Shown here piece after piece: positions 15,636 to 46,731 of a DNA stretch of 64,000 bases. The stretch's first letter is position 1. Each line of letters opens with the position of its first letter. A model generated the notes under the pieces. The model worked only from the letters and a program-made list of their open reading frames with translations, had not been told where the DNA came from and did no database searches. Source of the DNA: Desulfurococcales archaeon (GTDB lineage: Archaea > Thermoproteota > Thermoprotei_A > Sulfolobales > NBVN01); the NCBI GenBank assembly GCA_027002995.1, contig JALWZB010000061.1, positions 3,000 through 66,999 on the forward strand, in the 5' to 3' direction. A program made the position numbers and the translations under genes.

Positions 15636-16484
15636 ATGAGAATCCCACAAACTATGATAAGAAAATTAATACTAGTTGCAGTTATATCCCTCGTCCTAAT
15701 ACTTCCACTTACTAACCTTGCAACTACCCTCGCAGGCTCATGTGACCCAAGTAAAGTAAACCCAAGACCCACTCACGAAAACGACCACCCATACTACGAA
15801 TACCTAGGAACTGTAGTAAGGCTTATTCCAATTATAATAGTTAATTCACCACCTAAGGGCGAGGCGTACGGAGAAGCAACTTTCACTACAAGCTTCACAT
15901 ACAGCTTTAAGGGTAGTAGCTTTGCTGGAACATATAAAATATCGTCCCTCCAAGTTTATCGAGAAAAGATAAGGGTATACGCAAAAGACGGGGAAGTTAC
16001 AGGTCTCTTTACTAAGGCTTCACTAGACATATATAATGTCTATGTCTGTAACTACATTAACCCCGATGGTTGCGATTACGTGGATACCGTGGCTACATTG
16101 AATAAAGCGACAGGACTTATAGGGGCTATCATAGCTCCTAAGAAAACAACGGATCAAACCTACGTACCAACTAGTGTTGAGGTAAACGGAGTAAGGTCTG
16201 TTACCTTTGATGTAAGGTACAGGAATACTAACAAGTTTGAGGTTGATACTTGTTACACAGACGAACCTATGGTACTGTCTGTTAGTGAGAGTTCACTTAT
16301 AAGTAGTTCTAGCGGCTTCTTCTATGATGGACTGTATTTGCATGGTAGTGTAACAATTAGCTATGGTTCTGAGGTGAGCAAGGAGATGACTTACACATTT
16401 CCTCCTGGATGCCTTTGGTATGTACACCCAATCGGCGGTATGTACTCATTCAAGCTCATAAGTTGCAGGAATAATGCAGGGTGA
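15636..16484 (+). CDS. secreted orphan protein (N-terminal signal peptide)
   Basis: 282 aa. The signal-like N-terminus is MIRKLILVAVISLVLILPLTNLATTLAGSC. There are no recognised domains. The gene is clearly AT-richer than its neighbours. Confidence 0.6.
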   Translation: MRIPQTMIRKLILVAVISLVLILPLTNLATTLAGSCDPSKVNPRPTHENDHPYYEYLGTVVRLIPIIIVNSPPKGEAYGEATFTTSFTYSFKGSSFAGTYKISSLQVYREKIRVYAKDGEVTGLFTKASLDIYNVYVCNYINPDGCDYVDTVATLNKATGLIGAIIAPKKTTDQTYVPTSVEVNGVRSVTFDVRYRNTNKFEVDTCYTDEPMVLSVSESSLISSSSGFFYDGLYLHGSVTISYGSEVSKEMTYTFPPGCLWYVHPIGGMYSFKLISCRNNAG

Positions 16485-16492
16485 TTTAAACC

Positions 16493-17323
16493 ATGAGGAC
16501 TAAGAAAAATATTTTATTACTGACAGCTTTATGTTTGCTTATAATATTATTTACTGTCTTTATAAATTATTGTTGTGGTCATAATGTAATTAATGCTTAC
16601 TTTACGGTTAATAAGGGAGTATCGGACACTTTCGGTGCAGTATTAGTCTCTGCCCCTCTAAGTAAGTTAGGAGTTTTTAACGCTAGCGGACCCATAAATT
16701 CCTCTAATCTCATTAAAGGATCCTTCCTGATTAAGGTGCCTATTGCGGATCGTAAGGATCTACGTATTATTTATGTAGGGTACGGTGCACATATAGAGTA
16801 TTATGCGACACCAGCCTTACCTAATGCCTCACTAGAGAGGAAGTTCTGTAGCCTTTTGAGTAACCTTAGTGGTAGGTTGGCTGATGTCGTGGTTCACTTT
16901 AACTTAAGCGTTAACGGTAGACCTCCTGTGAAGCTACCTTACATAGAGTCTCTTCAGGATCTTCAGTGTAACTCTCCCTCCATCCTGAGCGCGTGGCTAG
17001 GCGTATCCGGTGATAATAAGTGGGGTCAGGAAGCATACCGTTATATTATGAAGTCCTTAGTTAATGGTGAGAACACTTTTAATATAACGTTCTGGGTAAC
17101 TGCATCAGTAAATAATACACTCATGAGCAGGTTGCGGTCGAGTCCCTTTAGGGATATATTGGATAATGTTAACCTAACATTAGTTGTGCTTCCTTCTGTT
17201 GCTGTCAGTGAGCAGTCGGGAGTTACTTCAATTCCAGTACCGTGGGTTGCGGCTCTAGCAGGTGTGTCCGTGGCGTCGGTGCTGATAACTTACTATGTTG
17301 CCTCAAAAGAAAAACGAGAGTGA
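16493..17323 (+). CDS. membrane-anchored orphan surface protein with many N-glycosylation sequons
   Basis: 276 aa. It has an N-terminal TM or signal (ILLLTALCLLIILFTVFI) and a C-terminal TM (WVAALAGVSVASVLITYYV) followed by KEKRE. NxS/T sites are numerous. The gene is very AT-rich and lies 8 nt after the previous gene. Confidence 0.6.
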   Translation: MRTKKNILLLTALCLLIILFTVFINYCCGHNVINAYFTVNKGVSDTFGAVLVSAPLSKLGVFNASGPINSSNLIKGSFLIKVPIADRKDLRIIYVGYGAHIEYYATPALPNASLERKFCSLLSNLSGRLADVVVHFNLSVNGRPPVKLPYIESLQDLQCNSPSILSAWLGVSGDNKWGQEAYRYIMKSLVNGENTFNITFWVTASVNNTLMSRLRSSPFRDILDNVNLTLVVLPSVAVSEQSGVTSIPVPWVAALAGVSVASVLITYYVASKEKRE

Positions 17324-20663: not shown

Positions 20664-20758
20664 CTTTGACCATATTTAAAATACGTACTCACCTTAAATG
20701 CCGTAACTCATGATGGTAAGGTACTTTGGCGCTCATACAAAAGAAGACTTCGAGAACT

Positions 20759-22804
20759 ATGAAGGTCAGGGGAGGACTCTCGAAAATCGTGGGCACCGTG
20801 CTCCTCATGCTAGTGACTGTGTCTATGGGTGTAGTGCTATATGCATACATGCAGAACAAGACATCATCTAGTGTGGGGAATACCTTACCGCAAGTGAGGG
20901 TGGGGTTCGCCACCATAGAGAAGTACTTCTGGCGAGGTGATCTGGTAGTGTATGTTGCTAATCATGGTGACCAGGAGCTTAAGCTTGACAAAGCTTACTT
21001 AAGGGTGGGTAATGAATGGGTAGCCGTTAAGTCAAGCCTACCTACGTCAATACCGCCACATAGTAGCAAGGCAGTCATAGTGTCCACAGTAAACATACCT
21101 CCAGGAAATCATGAGTTGCGGCTGGCCGGGCCCGGCGGATACGTGGGGAGCATAGTTGACCCACCCGGTTCAGCCATCATGGACTATATAGGCACAATAA
21201 CGCCCGCAGCAACTATTAACTCCCCGATAACGCCCGCATCGGGTTTCCTAGCGAAGTTCTACGACATAAGGGGGCTAGAGAAGGTTCCCTCAGTAAATGA
21301 AATCTTAGGACTTGGTGATGACCGGTTACTTGATGAACGCGTTGTTCAGCAAATACGTTTCAGCGATACGGTTAGTGGCCTACCTAGGTGGGGTCTTCCT
21401 CAAACAGACAGGTTTGCCGCTGTCTTCGAGGGCGTCGTGAGTGTTAAGGAGAAATCAGTGCTGAAGATAACCGCAGTCAGTGACGATGGCGTTTACATCA
21501 CCGTTGATGGGAAGGTAGTAATTAATGGGTGGCGGCTTCAAGCAGCAACTAGGTATGAAGGAAGCATTACATTATCTCCCGGAAACCATGAGGTAGTTGT
21601 AGTTTACTTTGAGAACTACGGGATAGCCACGCTAGAGGTGAGCCTAGACCTCGTGCCTGTGACCCAGAATGCATTTAGCGTGATCAGTATCACGGGGAAG
21701 TATTATGACACAACAGATTACAATCCCTCCAATCCCGACTACAGGAAAGTACTCAATGATGAACTACCAACGAAGTTCTTTGAGGATACTGAGCAAGCAA
21801 TCGACTATACCGACCATTCGGCCTACGGAGGTAAGCCATGGCCCTTCACGAACACGTACAGAGACGTCAATTGCTTCGCCGCGCACTGGGTAGTTAAAGT
21901 CCAAGTCAACGTGCCGGGCATGTATGAGGTGAACGCAATAAGCGATGACGGGATAGTTATCTTACTGGACAACAGCAAGCAGGTAATATCTGACTGGACC
22001 CTACATGGCCCAAGGCAATATACACAGGTAATTTACCTCTCTAAAGGAACTCACAGGTTCGACATAGCGTATTACGAGAACTACGGCATCGCAAGGGCTT
22101 ACTTTAACTTAAGCTTCATCGGTAACACTAACCAAGTGGTTAGTGGAGGATGGGAGGCGGTAGTATATGATTTAACTCACTACACCTGGGGCTCCCTAAA
22201 CCTTAACGAACTCTACGACAACATAATTCAAGGGAAGTTCCCCGTAGTCGGGAAGTACAGGGTCGACTACATAGACTTTACCGACCACGCAGTATACGGT
22301 GGTAGTCCATGGTTCTTCAGCGGTCACGGAACTGACTACTTCGCAGTGGTCTTCAAGACAACGATTAATGTCAAGGATTACATAGTGCTAAATATAAACG
22401 TGTATACTGACGACGGCACGAAGGTGTTGGTAGATGGAAACGTTGTTCTAGACGCTTGGCGCCTACAGTCGCCCCATCACTATTCCGCAGGGATAGCGCT
22501 AGCACCAGGCAGTCACGAGATAGCGGTGGTTTACTTTGAGAGGACAGGTATTGCGAGACTTAAGGTCGACCTATACCCCTCAGCACCCGTGTATGCCGGG
22601 CGCAAGGATGTATTCACACTCGTGATCAATGACCCCAGCGCCGTCCCCAAAGATTTCAGAATCACACTTATTAATGAGAAGGGCATCATTGGTGAGAAGG
22701 AAGTACATATTACAGGAACGTCTAAACAAGTCATTACGATCAAGGTTAAGGGAGATTCCCTGCCGACGAGGGGAGCAATAGTTATCTGGGGAGGGAGAAA
22801 GTAG
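20759..22804 (+). CDS. surface protein with archaeal class III (pilin-like) signal peptide and three PA14-like domains
   Basis: The ORF is open from 20726 (TTG), but the likely start is the ATG at 20759, giving MKVRGGLSKIVGTVLLMLVTVSMGVVLYAY (KG/RG motif plus hydrophobic helix). Three repeats follow the pattern F-A-A/V-x-F/W..(V/I)SDDG..(V/L)DG..V(I/L)..W.....Y.....L..G.HE(V/I).V.YFE..G.A.L.V.L. Confidence 0.8.
   Translation: MKVRGGLSKIVGTVLLMLVTVSMGVVLYAYMQNKTSSSVGNTLPQVRVGFATIEKYFWRGDLVVYVANHGDQELKLDKAYLRVGNEWVAVKSSLPTSIPPHSSKAVIVSTVNIPPGNHELRLAGPGGYVGSIVDPPGSAIMDYIGTITPAATINSPITPASGFLAKFYDIRGLEKVPSVNEILGLGDDRLLDERVVQQIRFSDTVSGLPRWGLPQTDRFAAVFEGVVSVKEKSVLKITAVSDDGVYITVDGKVVINGWRLQAATRYEGSITLSPGNHEVVVVYFENYGIATLEVSLDLVPVTQNAFSVISITGKYYDTTDYNPSNPDYRKVLNDELPTKFFEDTEQAIDYTDHSAYGGKPWPFTNTYRDVNCFAAHWVVKVQVNVPGMYEVNAISDDGIVILLDNSKQVISDWTLHGPRQYTQVIYLSKGTHRFDIAYYENYGIARAYFNLSFIGNTNQVVSGGWEAVVYDLTHYTWGSLNLNELYDNIIQGKFPVVGKYRVDYIDFTDHAVYGGSPWFFSGHGTDYFAVVFKTTINVKDYIVLNINVYTDDGTKVLVDGNVVLDAWRLQSPHHYSAGIALAPGSHEIAVVYFERTGIARLKVDLYPSAPVYAGRKDVFTLVINDPSAVPKDFRITLINEKGIIGEKEVHITGTSKQVITIKVKGDSLPTRGAIVIWGGRK
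21242..22573 (+). repeat. three tandem PA14-like modules (protein-level repeats) inside the 20759-22804 gene
   Basis: The modules lie at about nt 21242-21649, 21692-22117 and 22151-22573. Each ends in ..VVYFENYGIATLEVSL / IAYYENYGIARAYFNLSF / VVYFERTGIARLKVDL. Confidence 0.7.
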
Positions 22805-43333: not shown

Positions 43334-43340
43334 AAAAAAA
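43334..43340 (-). terminator. oligo-T terminator downstream of the 936-aa gene
   Basis: The minus strand reads gugUUUUUUUgagg about 50 nt after the stop at 43389. Archaeal termination typically uses oligo-T tracts. Confidence 0.4.
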
Positions 43341-43388: not shown

Positions 43389-46199
43389 TCACGATGTGGG
43401 TATGACCCAGACTTCAGAGGAGCCTGAATCCCTAACCAGTATTAACGCCCCATTATAGTACTCCATCCTATCACCGTAGCCTATCGGGGCTGGGAGGAAG
43501 AGAACAGGTACGTTAGTGAAGTTAGCGTACGTTGGGTTAACTTTATACAGGCTACCGCCCTCCAACATCAGCCATAAGTACTTCCCGTCATAGGCTAACC
43601 CGACGTTACTTAAGCCAGGCATGAGGTTAGCTGTGTTGGACGGTGGTACGGAGGTGCTGTTAGTGAACGGGTTAACGGCAACCAGCACCGCGGCCTTAGA
43701 CGTAGTGTTCTGAAGGATCGTGTACACCCTAGTGTCCACAACAGCCGAGACCGTGTAGGGAGAGGAAACATTCAGGCTGCGGGAAGTAAAGCTAATCAAC
43801 CAAGCACCTCCAGAGGGATACGCCGTCAAGTTATACACGCAGAACGACTGATTACCAACACCAGGCAAAACAGCCAAGTACGTCCTACCAGAGACTGAAT
43901 CATGCACAACCTCAGCCCTAACACCCCCACCTAAGGAGGCCCTACACGCGTCAGTAACGAAAACAGGTGGAGCCGAAGGATTAAGCAAGTCCAACCTATA
44001 TACCCCGCTTCCATTAACTAAGAACAAGGAGTGACTTACGTAACCATCATAAGCAATGTCAGCAGAACCATTAAACACCGTACCAAGCACATTTATAGTC
44101 TCCCAATACAACAGCGTAACACTACCCGGAGCCACACCAGACAACTTAAACACGTCAATATAACTAGTGCCACCCTCACCAACCAATAACACATCCTGAG
44201 ACACCGGAACCCAAACATCAGGGAACGCATTCAGGCAATCAACCTGCAGGGTGAAGGAAGAATCATCATAGGCAAGCAACTCAAGAACCACAGTACCATT
44301 AGTAGGATTAACCAGCGACGCAGGTAAACCAGTAACATTCAACCTAGCCCCACCAGTGGCGTTGTAAACCTTAACAAAAGTACCTAATGACCAGTCATAA
44401 GCATAAACACAAAAGACAGTAGTGCCTAAACTCGACTGGAGAGCAACACTCACAGTAGTTGATGAGACATTATTGCCAGACACGCTAATAGTGCCACTTA
44501 AGTTAACCGAGGCCCTAACCTCCAACTTAGAGGCATATTTTTGTAAAATACTATAAACATCACCGCCAACTATTATCGAGAAAATCCTTGAAGTAACTAT
44601 AGCTCCCGTAGTATCATACACAACTATCATGCCATTACGGATAATAGGTTGCCTGATAACATTAACTGAAGCATAGCCAGACGCATTAAAAACTGCACTG
44701 CCTACGAGATAGCCAGATGCATTGTAGATACTGACATTATAGCCAGAAAAAGTCGTAGGTGCCGTTATATTCACCCAAAGAGGGGAAGCATTAATAGTCA
44801 TCACCACCTCGTCGAAAGCTGTCACGGCGTACCAGGCTCCTAAACCGAGTTCTGTAGGGAAGAAGTAGCTGTCCGAAACAGCAATGCTAGCTAGATAGTT
44901 TCCATTTACATCATATAGCGTTGAATTAAGAACTCCCCGATTAGTCCTCAATGCCAGAACATAAAACCACTCACCTAATTGGGGCTCTGATGCAGCTGGT
45001 ATGGAGCTATATAGTATCACCCTTGAGTGATTATTTATTGACGCAGCATATACGTTATTCAAAGTACTACCTGGTGGTAGAGGAGGAGGAGGCGGAGGTC
45101 CCGGTCCTCCACCTACAAACGTGAGGGTGATGTTCTCTCCTAGGGCTCCAAGCTCATAGAACCAAGTATTATTTAACTGGAGTAGGCCCGACGTACCTAG
45201 ATTATAATCAAGAACCCATCCCCCAGGCAGGATGAAGGAGTTATAAAGGTAGCTTACCCTGCTAATATTAAGCTTAAGAAGCGCATATATGTTGCTTGCA
45301 GATAGATTCACTACTGATAAGCTTTTCGTAATATTTACGATTGCAATGTATTCTCCATTAGAAGAATCTGTTTGTTCGACGTAGTGTCCTATAGGGTTCC
45401 AGACCCATGTTCCATTTACTGCCGTTAGATTTCCGTCGATAAATGGATTATTTAGGAAGTCATCGTAAAATATTGCTGTTCTCTTTTCTCCGGCTATTAC
45501 GTAGCTTGGGATTGGTGTTGCTGTTATGTTTTGGTTGTCTGCGTAGTTTAGGTTTGTTGCTATCCCTGTTGCTGTTCCTGTTAGTGCTGTGTATGCGTAT
45601 ACGTTTCCTGCTCTTGTTTGTGGTGTTGGTATTGTTGCTGTTCCTGCCCATGTTACTGTTCCTGCCCCGGCTATTCTTGGCAGATACGTGTTTGCTAGGC
45701 TTGCCTGTACTCCTGGTAGGGTTGTTGCGTTCGTTGCTGGTATTGGGTATGTTGCTTTGAAGGCGTTGCCTAGCTCCGATATTAGCGTTATTTCGTAGGT
45801 TGATACCGGGCTTAGGGGATATGGGGTCATTATGGTTAGTGTTGTCCTCGTTTGTGGTGCTACGTATTTTTCAGGGGTTATTTTGCCTACTATTTTTACG
45901 GTGTTGTTTCTTATGATGTAGTTTACGAGTACTATTGGTTGTGTGCCGTCGTTTGTTACGGTGATTGTTACTGAGGTTCCGGTTATTGTTATGGAGTTTA
46001 TTGTTAGTTTCTCCTGTTGCTTCTTGAGGAGGAGCTGGTTTGCTCTTATTACGTTGGATGTTGTTGTCGCCATCCTCTGCAGTATGAATGTAAAGGTCAA
46101 GAGAAATGCTAGGAGAGTTGCTAGTATGAATATTGCCGCTATTATCGTTGAAACGGCTTTCCTTCCTTTGCTTTTCTTACGTGGACGCATCTTGATCAC
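43389..46199 (-). CDS. giant surface protein with class III (pilin-like) signal peptide
   Basis: 936 aa. The N-terminus reads KKSKGRKAVSTIIAAIFILATLLAFLLTF. It has dozens of NxS/T sequons and a poly-Pro hinge GGGPGPPPPPPLPPGS (around nt 45065-45110). A GTG or ATG start lies 1-10 nt after the upstream pilin-like gene, with GAGGTGA overlapping that gene's stop. Confidence 0.75.
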   Translation of the reverse strand: MIKMRPRKKSKGRKAVSTIIAAIFILATLLAFLLTFTFILQRMATTTSNVIRANQLLLKKQQEKLTINSITITGTSVTITVTNDGTQPIVLVNYIIRNNTVKIVGKITPEKYVAPQTRTTLTIMTPYPLSPVSTYEITLISELGNAFKATYPIPATNATTLPGVQASLANTYLPRIAGAGTVTWAGTATIPTPQTRAGNVYAYTALTGTATGIATNLNYADNQNITATPIPSYVIAGEKRTAIFYDDFLNNPFIDGNLTAVNGTWVWNPIGHYVEQTDSSNGEYIAIVNITKSLSVVNLSASNIYALLKLNISRVSYLYNSFILPGGWVLDYNLGTSGLLQLNNTWFYELGALGENITLTFVGGGPGPPPPPPLPPGSTLNNVYAASINNHSRVILYSSIPAASEPQLGEWFYVLALRTNRGVLNSTLYDVNGNYLASIAVSDSYFFPTELGLGAWYAVTAFDEVVMTINASPLWVNITAPTTFSGYNVSIYNASGYLVGSAVFNASGYASVNVIRQPIIRNGMIVVYDTTGAIVTSRIFSIIVGGDVYSILQKYASKLEVRASVNLSGTISVSGNNVSSTTVSVALQSSLGTTVFCVYAYDWSLGTFVKVYNATGGARLNVTGLPASLVNPTNGTVVLELLAYDDSSFTLQVDCLNAFPDVWVPVSQDVLLVGEGGTSYIDVFKLSGVAPGSVTLLYWETINVLGTVFNGSADIAYDGYVSHSLFLVNGSGVYRLDLLNPSAPPVFVTDACRASLGGGVRAEVVHDSVSGRTYLAVLPGVGNQSFCVYNLTAYPSGGAWLISFTSRSLNVSSPYTVSAVVDTRVYTILQNTTSKAAVLVAVNPFTNSTSVPPSNTANLMPGLSNVGLAYDGKYLWLMLEGGSLYKVNPTYANFTNVPVLFLPAPIGYGDRMEYYNGALILVRDSGSSEVWVIPTS

Positions 46200-46200
46200 C

Positions 46201-46677
46201 TCAGGTAGTAGTTATGTACGTGAATAACTTGACCTCGTTTGGTCCAGTCAATATTACTTCGTAGGTGTTTCCTGAGGCTAAGGTGTACCTTATTACTAAT
46301 TCGTTCACGCCGCTTGGTAATTGGGTTCCGAATCCTTGGATTAGGTCTGTCTTAGGTATCAATTGCTTGTTGATGTACGCCGTATCTATTACTACTGGAG
46401 CGCTGTCGTTGCTTACGTATACGAAGATATGTATTGTTGCGTCTGTTGAGTTGTAGTAGGCATCAACTATGCTTGCCTGGAGCTGGGCTACGTTGTTGAG
46501 TCTTTCGAGATCCTCGCTTAACCTCCTGTATTGAGCGTCCATTGCTGATTTGGCTGCTAGGTAGAAGGTCGTGCCTACGGTTACTGCTATGAGTATGAGT
46601 AGGGTTAGGGAAATAATTTCGGAGACGCCCTTCCTTGCCCAACGCTTGTTTAGCTTGGTCTTGGTTAGTGGCATCAT
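46201..46677 (-). CDS. archaeal type IV pilin-like protein (class III signal peptide)
   Basis: 158 aa. It reads RWARKGVSEIISLTLLILIAVTVGTTFYLAA followed by a small beta-rich domain. A TATA-like cttaaatttag lies at 46709-46719. Confidence 0.7.
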   Translation of the reverse strand: MMPLTKTKLNKRWARKGVSEIISLTLLILIAVTVGTTFYLAAKSAMDAQYRRLSEDLERLNNVAQLQASIVDAYYNSTDATIHIFVYVSNDSAPVVIDTAYINKQLIPKTDLIQGFGTQLPSGVNELVIRYTLASGNTYEVILTGPNEVKLFTYITTT

Positions 46678-46731
46678 TTTACCTAAGTCATATGTATCTA
46701 TAGAGCGACTTAAATTTAGTCTGCTAATGAT

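Follow-up and report, generated by a model that had tools for sequence, protein, structure and literature searches.

A conserved gene pair for a small pilin-like protein and a large modular pilin in a Desulfurococcales archaeon, a candidate adhesive module of a type IV filament

Described systems and the gene pair

We have analyzed two adjacent genes, one for a small pilin-like protein and one for a large protein with a pilin-type N-terminus, in a 64,000 nucleotide stretch of DNA from a Desulfurococcales archaeon (contig JALWZB010000061.1 of assembly GCA_027002995.1; the whole stretch is called the window below). Archaea adhere, move and exchange DNA mainly by means of type IV filaments (T4F). 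Outside the Sulfolobales, methanogens and haloarchaea these filaments are, to our knowledge, described almost only by gene censuses, and we know of no experimental study of the 4A-type systems. The source organism is known from metagenome assemblies alone, and the pair is read here from its genes. The arrangement described for subsystem 4A, a gene for a small class III pilin and, after it, one for a large secreted protein, both 3' of genes for an ATPase and two platform proteins, is found with the small-large pair in one other genome (G087), where six genes lie on one strand in the order pilin (147 amino acids), ATPase (510), TadC (291), TadC (303), small (150) and large (881). Table S4 of one gene census gives for Acidilobus saccharovorans the order ATPase-TadC-TadC-arCOG11238 pilin-unassigned 658 amino acid protein (Makarova et al. 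2016, PMC4858521). The entries of that census list arCOG11238 for Acidilobus, Caldisphaera, Ignisphaera, Hyperthermus and Pyrolobus, a distribution compatible with where we found the pair. The published 4A adhesin, arCOG03511, is listed there as absent from Hyperthermus, and the large family described here may be separate from it. In the text of a recent review the 4A/4B adhesin is called 'PilY-like' (Sivabalasarma and Albers 2026, PMC13705601).

Four other described systems share parts of this design. As described for PilB of Streptococcus sanguinis (PMC8179133), a functional ectodomain is grafted onto an N-terminal pilin module and the adhesin is itself a pilin subunit; compared with that account, the ectodomain of our large protein is far larger (about 780 residues, with at least four domains), unrelated in sequence and known from genes alone, and the protein has an archaeal class III signal and no Glu5. 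PilY1 of Pseudomonas aeruginosa is, like the large protein, a large pilus-associated adhesin with a C-terminal beta-propeller and small pilin-like partners (priming minor pilins). However, PilY1 itself has no pilin N-terminus, whereas the large protein has one, and the propeller predicted here differs in having about six blades and repeats of some 45 residues. No match to the PilY1/Neisseria_PilC Pfam families was found at E<=0.1 in the large protein or in 22 members of its family, and no vWA domain was detected. The solved pilins and FlaG/FlaF proteins (PDB 8fk7, 6nav, 8q30, 6w8u and 5tuh) share their fold with the small protein and with residues 13-150 of the large one; unlike FlaG/FlaF (ArlF/ArlG), the pair lies outside the archaellum operon, which is on another contig (C155), and its ArlF scores fall below the cut-off. 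Finally, in the Sulfolobus bindosome a prepilin-type N-terminus mounts a large functional protein on a T4F base, and the small protein has a sub-threshold match to BasA, but neither a solute-binding domain nor an ABC-transporter context is present here.

We put at roughly 60% the probability that the pair is a self-contained bicistronic adhesive accessory module, pilin plus adhesin, of an archaeal T4F of the 4A type. Both precursors would insert in the membrane, where a PibD-type prepilin peptidase would cut the small one after RKG and the large one after RKA. Each mature protein would begin with a hydrophobic helix of about 25 residues followed by a pilin-type beta-sandwich, and these pilin modules would be loaded into a filament by an ATPase/TadC machine encoded elsewhere in the genome. 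The shaft would consist mainly of a separate PilA-type major pilin. The small protein would act as an adaptor or minor pilin, made in about the same amount as the large protein and possibly joined to it in a 1:1 complex, and the large protein would be a modular pilin presenting a heavily N-glycosylated ectodomain of about 780 residues at the tip or along the filament. The ectodomain, with its sandwich resembling LamG and carbohydrate-binding modules (CBM), its immunoglobulin (Ig)-like domains and its propeller of about six blades, would be the binding part, probably for glycans, and a hypervariable cassette within it would set binding or antigenic specificity.

In this proposed design the adhesin carries a pilin handle of its own and has a small adaptor as partner, and the pair is a widely conserved candidate for how hyperthermophilic Desulfurococcales-type archaea mount a large binding head on a pilus. 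The cassette is a possible place where specificity in host-virus or cell-cell recognition is determined. Neither Pfam nor NCBIfam has a model for the large family, and many genomes would be better annotated if its domains and cassette were described. The idea is open to test, because orthologues are present in relatives whose genomes are complete and which are probably cultured.

Signals, folds and domains of the two proteins

The pair consists of two co-oriented open reading frames (ORFs) on the minus strand, at 46201-46677 (158 amino acids) and at 43389-46199 (936 amino acids when read from a GTG codon). The probable start of the large gene is the ATG at 46190, which is used by public gene calls and by all close homologues and gives 933 amino acids; residue numbers follow this start.

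46201-46677, minus strand: small pilin-like gene, 158 amino acids (157 from the second ATG), with a helix at residues 14-65 and then a seven-strand beta-sandwich
Residues 1-17 of the small protein, minus strand: leader, with a PibD site predicted from the sequence between RKG and VSE
43389-46190, minus strand: gene for the large modular pilin and putative adhesin, 933 amino acids from the ATG at 46190 (936 from the alternative GTG at 46199)

The earlier note had assigned class III signals to both products, and the family alignments bear this out. Each protein has a short basic leader ending in [KR][GA] and then a hydrophobic stretch of some 20 or more residues, as is usual for class III substrates, and both features are conserved across the two families. 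The leader of the small protein reads ...RWARKG before VSEIIS, with the predicted cut between RKG and VSEIISLTLLILIAVTVGTTFYLAA; that of the large protein reads ...KGRKA before VSTII, with the predicted cut between RKA and VSTIIAAIFILATLLAFLLTFTFIL. After both sites 25-26 residues are free of K, R and D, and the small protein carries a Glu at position +3. The motif [KR][GA] followed by [VIL][SGA] is invariant in 13 small homologues, as is GVSE, and is kept in about 20 of 22 distant large homologues that share 22-30% identity. A PibD homologue is encoded in the same genome (G000 C155:154814-155107; PF01478, 39.3 bits, above the cut-off), and would presumably cleave both N-termini.

A beta module had been proposed to follow the signal in each protein, and both modules are borne out. 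The AlphaFold2 (AF2) model of the small protein (pLDDT 80.6) has a long helix, residues 14-65, packed on a seven-strand sandwich. Its best Foldseek matches in the PDB are the pilins of Pyrobaculum calidifontis (8fk7), Sulfolobus (6nav and 8tib) and P. arsenaticum (6w8u), the Aap pilin (8q30), and FlaG/FlaF (5tuh), with E values from 3e-5 to 9e-4; the match to 8fk7 has an E value of 2.8e-5 and a TMt of 0.63. The helix is unusually long, with a charged extension of about 25 residues. For the large protein, a family profile built from 22 full-length homologues matched the PDB sequences 8fk7_A (E 2.4e-6, profile positions 6-142) and archaellin 7ofq_B (E 2e-3), and the confident part of its AF2 model, residues ~60-150 only, covers the same module (pLDDT 79-86 over residues 61-140). 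A Foldseek search with this model returned 8fk7 (TMt 0.61) and otherwise generic propellers. Both proteins thus combine an N-terminal helix with an Ig-like sandwich resembling those of solved pilins, at sequence identities to solved pilins and FlaG/FlaF of only 13-23%. Scans of both proteins against Pfam and NCBIfam gave nothing above the cut-offs; the large protein has no Pfam family, and those public copies of it that bear a name are called 'hypothetical protein'.

In the large protein the pilin module (residues 13-150) is followed by about 780 residues of beta-rich domains, which is the layout of a modular type IV pilin. Modules of this ectodomain are also found separately in other proteins. 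No further hydrophobic segment was found beyond the N-terminal helix, and the remainder is predicted to be all-beta. Its parts are as follows.

45741-46190, minus strand: class III leader (residues 1-12, predicted site between RKA and VST) and pilin-like module (residues 13-150, hydrophobic helix and beta-sandwich)
45486-45740, minus strand: conserved Thr/Pro-rich linker, residues 151-235, delimited by pairwise identity among close homologues
44781-45485, minus strand: putative LamG/concanavalin-A-like (CBM66-like) beta-sandwich, residues 236-470, from marginal matches of a domain profile
44211-44780, minus strand: two putative Ig-like/prealbumin-like beta-sandwich domains, residues 471-660, from weak Pfam matches in the family
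43392-44210, minus strand: residues 661-933, best conserved region of the protein, a likely beta-propeller at the C-terminus with about six blades and an internal repeat

The linker shows 70-80% pairwise identity among close homologues over residues 151-210 and about 53% over residues 210-238; in a wide alignment of the large family P149, G183, L214 and D218 are nearly invariant. The profile of the next domain matched the CBM66 domain of Bacillus subtilis levanase over nearly its full length, with marginal E values of 0.04-0.06 (4b1l, 4azz and 4b1m), and then, also marginally, LNS/LamG domains of neurexin (E about 0.4-0.6). The domain begins with FxDDF...W...G.W and ends with G.G....FD..V, motifs that we take to be associated with concanavalin-A-like sandwiches. 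It recurs as an independent module in many proteins of about 490 amino acids, and three of the four that were inspected have a Sec-like hydrophobic N-terminus. Over residues 471-660 family members have weak Pfam matches to bMG3 (5 of 22, best E 3e-5), CarboxypepD_reg, Big_1 and FlgD_ig, and the AF2 model is all-beta over residues 470-540 (pLDDT 50-80).

Residues 661-933 are likely to form a beta-propeller. Self-comparison with hhalign detects an internal repeat (probability 88%, E 2.7e-6), and motifs of the form (I/G)(A/L)YDG...L.L...G.(V/L)Y return at intervals of about 45 residues, pointing to six blades. About 24 strands are predicted in this region, grouped by four. Foldseek matches of the low-confidence model are to kelch, WD40, BamB and LRP6 propellers, and the corresponding regions of family members give weak Pfam matches to Kelch, PQQ_2 and EMC1-propeller. 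Identity among close homologues is 74-90%.

The large protein had also been described as packed with N-x-S/T sequons and Thr-rich low-complexity sequence. The sequon excess is real (30 against 12.5 expected from composition, or 2.4-fold), and T (10%), S (9%) and N (7.5%) are enriched, but the sequence is not truly of low complexity. Size, glycosylation-rich composition and beta-rich structure are features that could also fit an S-layer protein, or a secreted protease or other hydrolase, with a chance class III-like N-terminus, and some T4F-associated proteins are said in the text of PMC13705601 to resemble S-layer proteins. We consider this explanation highly improbable. No S-layer, protease or hydrolase family was matched at E<=1, and the scans of the protein (Pfam and NCBIfam) and of 22 family members (Pfam) found no known family of the kind that the earlier note had named as grounds for giving up its proposal. 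The protein ends in the likely propeller, with no hydrophobic C-terminus, C-terminal anchor or coiled-coil stalk; its homology to pilins and archaellins is not confined to the signal peptide but extends over the first 140 residues, and a partner pilin gene is conserved beside it. Full-length copies, present in about 25 of 351 genomes, are also too few for the S-layer protein of the group. With its class III signal, pilin fold and grafted ectodomain, the large protein is plausibly a pilin-anchored adhesin, and the suggestion of a giant minor pilin or tip adhesin stands as plausible.

A hypervariable cassette in the large protein

The new observation here is a strain-variable, mosaic lectin-like cassette at residues ~266-445 of the large protein, within the LamG-like domain.

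44856-45395, minus strand: hypervariable mosaic cassette, residues ~266-445, containing the Pro-rich GGGPGPPPPPPLPPGS, delimited by pairwise identity

Among seven close homologues pairwise identity is 70-80% over residues 61-210 and 74-90% over residues 775-933, and only 14-38% over residues 266-445. The contrast is sharpest between the protein of the window (P0001) and P0004, which are 93% identical in the N-terminal part, 92% in the C-terminal part and 20% in the cassette. Similarity among cassettes is incongruent with that among backbones, that is, the proteins are mosaic: the cassette of the window groups with those of P0002 (60%) and P0003 (44%), the backbones of which pair with P0006 and P0005. 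On near-identical backbones there are at least four cassette types that cannot be aligned with one another. The Pro-rich GGGPGPPPPPPLPPGS (residues 360-375 of the 933 amino acid protein, nucleotides 45066-45113), which had been taken for a hinge splitting the protein into two large regions, lies in the most variable part of the LamG-like module. Of 7 close homologues, 4 have a Pro-rich stretch here and 3 do not, and we interpret it as a lineage-variable insert inside one domain.

The same break is seen in the DNA. The locus of P0004 (L056, GCA_027034615.1) is 96-99% identical to the window in the NTP-transferase gene on the 5' side of the pair, in the 5' two-thirds of the small gene and in the part of the asparaginase gene that was compared. 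Identity falls to 28-48% at 45435-44786, with shoulders on either side, and a second dip (62-73%) at 46435-46170 takes in the last third of the small gene together with the leader-coding part of the large one. As read from these alignments, the cassette pattern is the signature of allele replacement or of strong diversifying selection on an exposed surface. Together with the sequon excess, a hypervariable mosaic cassette of a kind typical of exposed binding surfaces favours surface exposure of the large protein.

Ups pili in the Sulfolobales recognize the glycans of partner cells. It is possible, though we would rate it below an even chance, that the cassette is a recombining specificity determinant, polymorphic within populations, which serves strain-specific recognition of partner-cell glycans or is the target of an arms race with pilus-binding archaeal viruses. 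The second variable patch, in the C-terminal third of the small partner, would on this tentative view belong to the same determinant, and new alleles would arise by cassette exchange.

Different domains may occupy the cassette position in distant homologues. A DUF2341 domain (E 1.5e-16) precedes the region of P0036 that matches the family, and in P0080 and P0119 the excerpted sequence where the LamG-like cassette would lie appears DUF2341-like by eye; the position may be a slot for swappable modules. DUF2341 is linked to pilus adhesins in the census entries of PMC4858521.

Conservation of the pair and its relation to filament assembly genes

The earlier note had placed the two genes 1 nt apart. 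This holds only for the longest ORF, which begins at the GTG at 46199; from the stop of the small gene to the likely ATG at 46190 the spacer is 10 nt. The junction reads ...ACC TGA G GTG ATC AAG ATG..., and the following signals were noted around the pair.

46195-46202, minus strand: Shine-Dalgarno-like GAGGTGAT, seen in the sequence, overlapping the small-gene stop and 5 nt 5' of the large-gene ATG
46695-46718, minus strand: candidate promoter region, read from the sequence, within the 54-nt gap that follows the upstream NTP-transferase gene
43334-43340, minus strand: run of seven T residues, 48 nt past the large-gene stop, a candidate archaeal terminator

GAGGTGAT would be a textbook ribosome-binding site for an internal cistron, and because of this the genes are predicted to be operonic whichever start applies. 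Two TATA-like motifs precede the small gene, TAAATTTAAG at 46718-46709 and CTATAGATA at 46703-46695. The centre of CTATAGATA is about 26 nt before the second ATG (46674), where small homologues start (MPLTK), a spacing that would suit a leaderless transcript from that codon. With TATA-like motifs in the 5' gap and the T run 3' of the large gene, the pair looks like a two-gene transcription unit of its own. Both flanking genes, for a GMPPB-like NTP-transferase and for an Asparaginase_2 protein, are on the same strand.

A word-indexed search found 7 large and 13 small homologues, which co-occur on contigs, and an exhaustive profile search extended these to 191 proteins, of which about 30 are full-length (850-1000 amino acids). 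In a six-frame search of 351 genomes of the class, 170 gave matches at E<=1e-10, mostly to single modules; the full-length large copies are spread over six families (coded f1, f3, f4, f7, f9 and f10) and include complete genomes. With a narrow alignment, the related-locus search returned only four close loci, all in Desulfurococcales metagenome-assembled genomes. We compared neighbourhoods at 20 loci from other genomes, taken from the same six families. In most of them a class III protein of about 150 amino acids lies immediately 5' of the large gene, usually overlapping or abutting it, and at least five family-level lineages have kept the small-large pair. In two complete genomes (L044, G270 C1:417300-437100; L045, G273 C1:1421400-1441200) a paralogue of about 465 amino acids follows the large gene; it has the pilin module (profile positions 1-210) and the propeller (644-903) without the middle domains, and represents a natural 'mini' version.

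In several of these genomes the pair adjoins genes for filament assembly. Besides the six-gene order of G087, the pair is convergent with or divergent from a pilin-ATPase-TadC-TadC block in G108 and G194, and in G290 it is 6 kb from the pilin-ATPase block; the distances in these three range from 0.1 to 6 kb. An ATPase gene and two TadC genes, the linkage that marks subsystem 4A, adjoin the pair in G087, G108, G290 and G194, and by coordinates the same adjacency to assembly genes occurs in G196, G197 and G205. In complete genomes the pair and the assembly locus are 16-400 kb apart.

The linked loci bear on the role of the small protein, which had been read as the major pilin of its own dedicated filament, with the large protein as a rare tip adhesin. 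Its full pilin fold, whose best structural match is the filament-forming 8fk7, and its place as the first gene of the operon would suit that role, and the positionally equivalent arCOG11238 is termed a 'predicted pilin family protein' in the entries of the 2016 census (PMC4858521). However, the linked loci carry a separate PilA-type pilin gene directly 5' of the ATPase gene, with the small and large genes as a distinct, translationally coupled pair, so that the small protein is more likely an adaptor or minor pilin. The best match of these PilA-type pilins in the genome of the window is the pilin of another contig, C34 (E 1e-10 to 1e-20), and not the small protein. Shine-Dalgarno coupling also suggests similar dosage of the two proteins rather than thousands of copies to one, and the unusually long helix of the small protein, with its charged extension, and its likeness to FlaG/FlaF speak against such a role. 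We therefore regard a major-pilin role as distinctly unlikely.

The genome of the window was searched for assembly genes, as the earlier note had proposed, and contains, besides the PibD homologue, four ATPases of the T2SSE family (ArlI and three others), all on contigs other than that of the pair. Their loci are the archaellum operon (C155:168661-177132), which holds FlaG/F-like genes of its own (162 and 168 amino acids), a pilin-ATPase-platform locus, also on C155, a complex locus on C123, and a pilin-ATPase pair on C34, with the ATPase gene cut off by the end of the contig. A profile of the four linked ATPases separates, among the genomes of the class, an orthologue group scoring above 620 bits from paralogues at about 400 bits. 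C34 was considered as the clear cognate machinery and rejected, its ATPase being no closer than that of C123 and the genus having no member of the orthologue group. The C34 and C123 ATPases are about equally distant from the linked ones and so single out no machine for the pair in this genus.

The ATPase of C123 (C123:20121-23183, 1020 amino acids) and ArlI (C155:172343-175483, 1046 amino acids) each carry an insertion of about 480 amino acids at the same site (FQAxxS/VSWDTP...LHN/TGH). Both insertions contain a LAGLIDADG-like motif and are probably inteins; relatives of the same genus have a C123 ATPase of 538 amino acids without it. Convergent with the C123 ATPase gene, at C123:23207-30529, are genes for a TadC protein (599 amino acids), two pilins, proteins of 448 and 240 amino acids, and a protein of 710 amino acids with a class III signal. 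The locus resembles the 'complex Desulfurococcales 4A' organisation as it is given in PMC4858521.

A number of these results weigh against assigning the pair to a 4A-type filament. In this genome, and in its genus, the pair differs from subsystem 4A in lying apart from any ATPase or TadC gene. As had been noted from the window, no assembly genes are adjacent, and there is no assembly ATPase on the whole 68-kb contig; none of the assembly genes was found within 10 kb in the two loci of the same lineage that were examined. The genus has only paralogues of the linked ATPase and no clear orthologue (best about 405 bits; in relatives the best match is the C123-type ATPase), the C34 and C123 ATPases are each only about 40% identical to it, and the TadC genes expected after the C34 ATPase gene were not found in this assembly, where the contig ends. 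All matches of the two proteins to curated NCBIfam pilin models are below cut-off: the small protein to BasA (19.8 bits against 230), UpsB and arch_flag_Nterm, and the large protein to ArlF and UpsB (TIGR02537, arch_flag_Nterm, 14.6 against 20; UpsB 19 against 70; ArlF scores 12.5 and 18.2 against an equivalog cut-off of 110). The AF2 model of the large protein, built on a 7-sequence alignment, is poor as a whole (mean pLDDT 46), and the ectodomain folds are marginally supported. Finally, the small protein resembles FlaG/FlaF, which are membrane-anchored, non-filament subunits in vivo.

The two proteins could instead make up a surface complex that is anchored in the membrane and has no filament, or only a very short pseudopilus, much like the Sulfolobus bindosome or ArlF with ArlG. 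In that case the class III helix would be no more than an anchor or assembly handle, and the large protein would capture nutrients by binding or processing polysaccharide, or else be attached to the S-layer. This is the main rival explanation. We consider it unlikely, yet it keeps real weight because the pair is unlinked here, syntenic with housekeeping genes and away from assembly genes throughout the genus, and because the small protein resembles FlaG/FlaF in structure, with sub-threshold matches of the pair to BasA and ArlF. The best match of the middle domain, marginal as it is, is a carbohydrate-binding module of levanase, and class III-signal proteins are proposed in the text of PMC13705601 to 'functionalise' T4F machineries for substrate scavenging. 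On the other side, in other families the pair is repeatedly found beside the pilin-ATPase-TadC-TadC block, Pfam scans and the neighbourhood showed no domain or gene for solute binding, a glycosidase or an ABC transporter, and hypervariability between near-identical strains is unusual for a nutrient-binding protein. An adhesive module of a 4A-type filament is the reading that we prefer.

In the lineage of the window the pair always lies between the NTP-transferase and Asparaginase_2 genes. A functional link to these flanking genes was considered and rejected, as both are missing from the 20 distant loci. The locus was reported to be AT-richer than its surroundings, and this is real, if modest: its GC content is 45.2%, while the window has 50.1% and the genome 50.8%, and 6.8% of genome windows of the same size are equally low. 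GC at third codon positions (GC3) is 0.42 in the large gene and 0.55-0.66 in housekeeping neighbours. It is not evidence of an island, the bias being one of codons and amino acids intrinsic to the genes of a syntenic locus. A genomic island or recent horizontal transfer was considered and rejected in view of the order NTP-transferase-small-large-Asparaginase_2, which is kept down to a homologue of 43% identity, and of the shared GC bias: low GC is common to other surface-protein genes, and in other genomes the homologous pairs equal their flanks in GC or fall slightly below them.

Two adjacent genes at 15636-17323 (plus strand) have the lowest GC of the window (0.41; GC3 0.37-0.38) and the same compositional bias as the pair. 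Elsewhere in the genome (C149:12595-13689) an orphan protein of 364 amino acids starts with MKINRRGISGLIAAIVLTAIAL. Over about 100 N-terminal residues it has a weak match to the small protein (E 0.02), and it may represent a further modular pilin that stands alone. The short beta modules of the pair had been likened to that of a PA14 protein in the window; this protein (20726-22804, plus strand, 692 amino acids; PF07691, E 1.7e-14) has a class III signal and an N-terminus that matches PilA-type pilins of the genome (E 2e-6 to 4e-5), and is a further predicted modular pilin-adhesin of the window.

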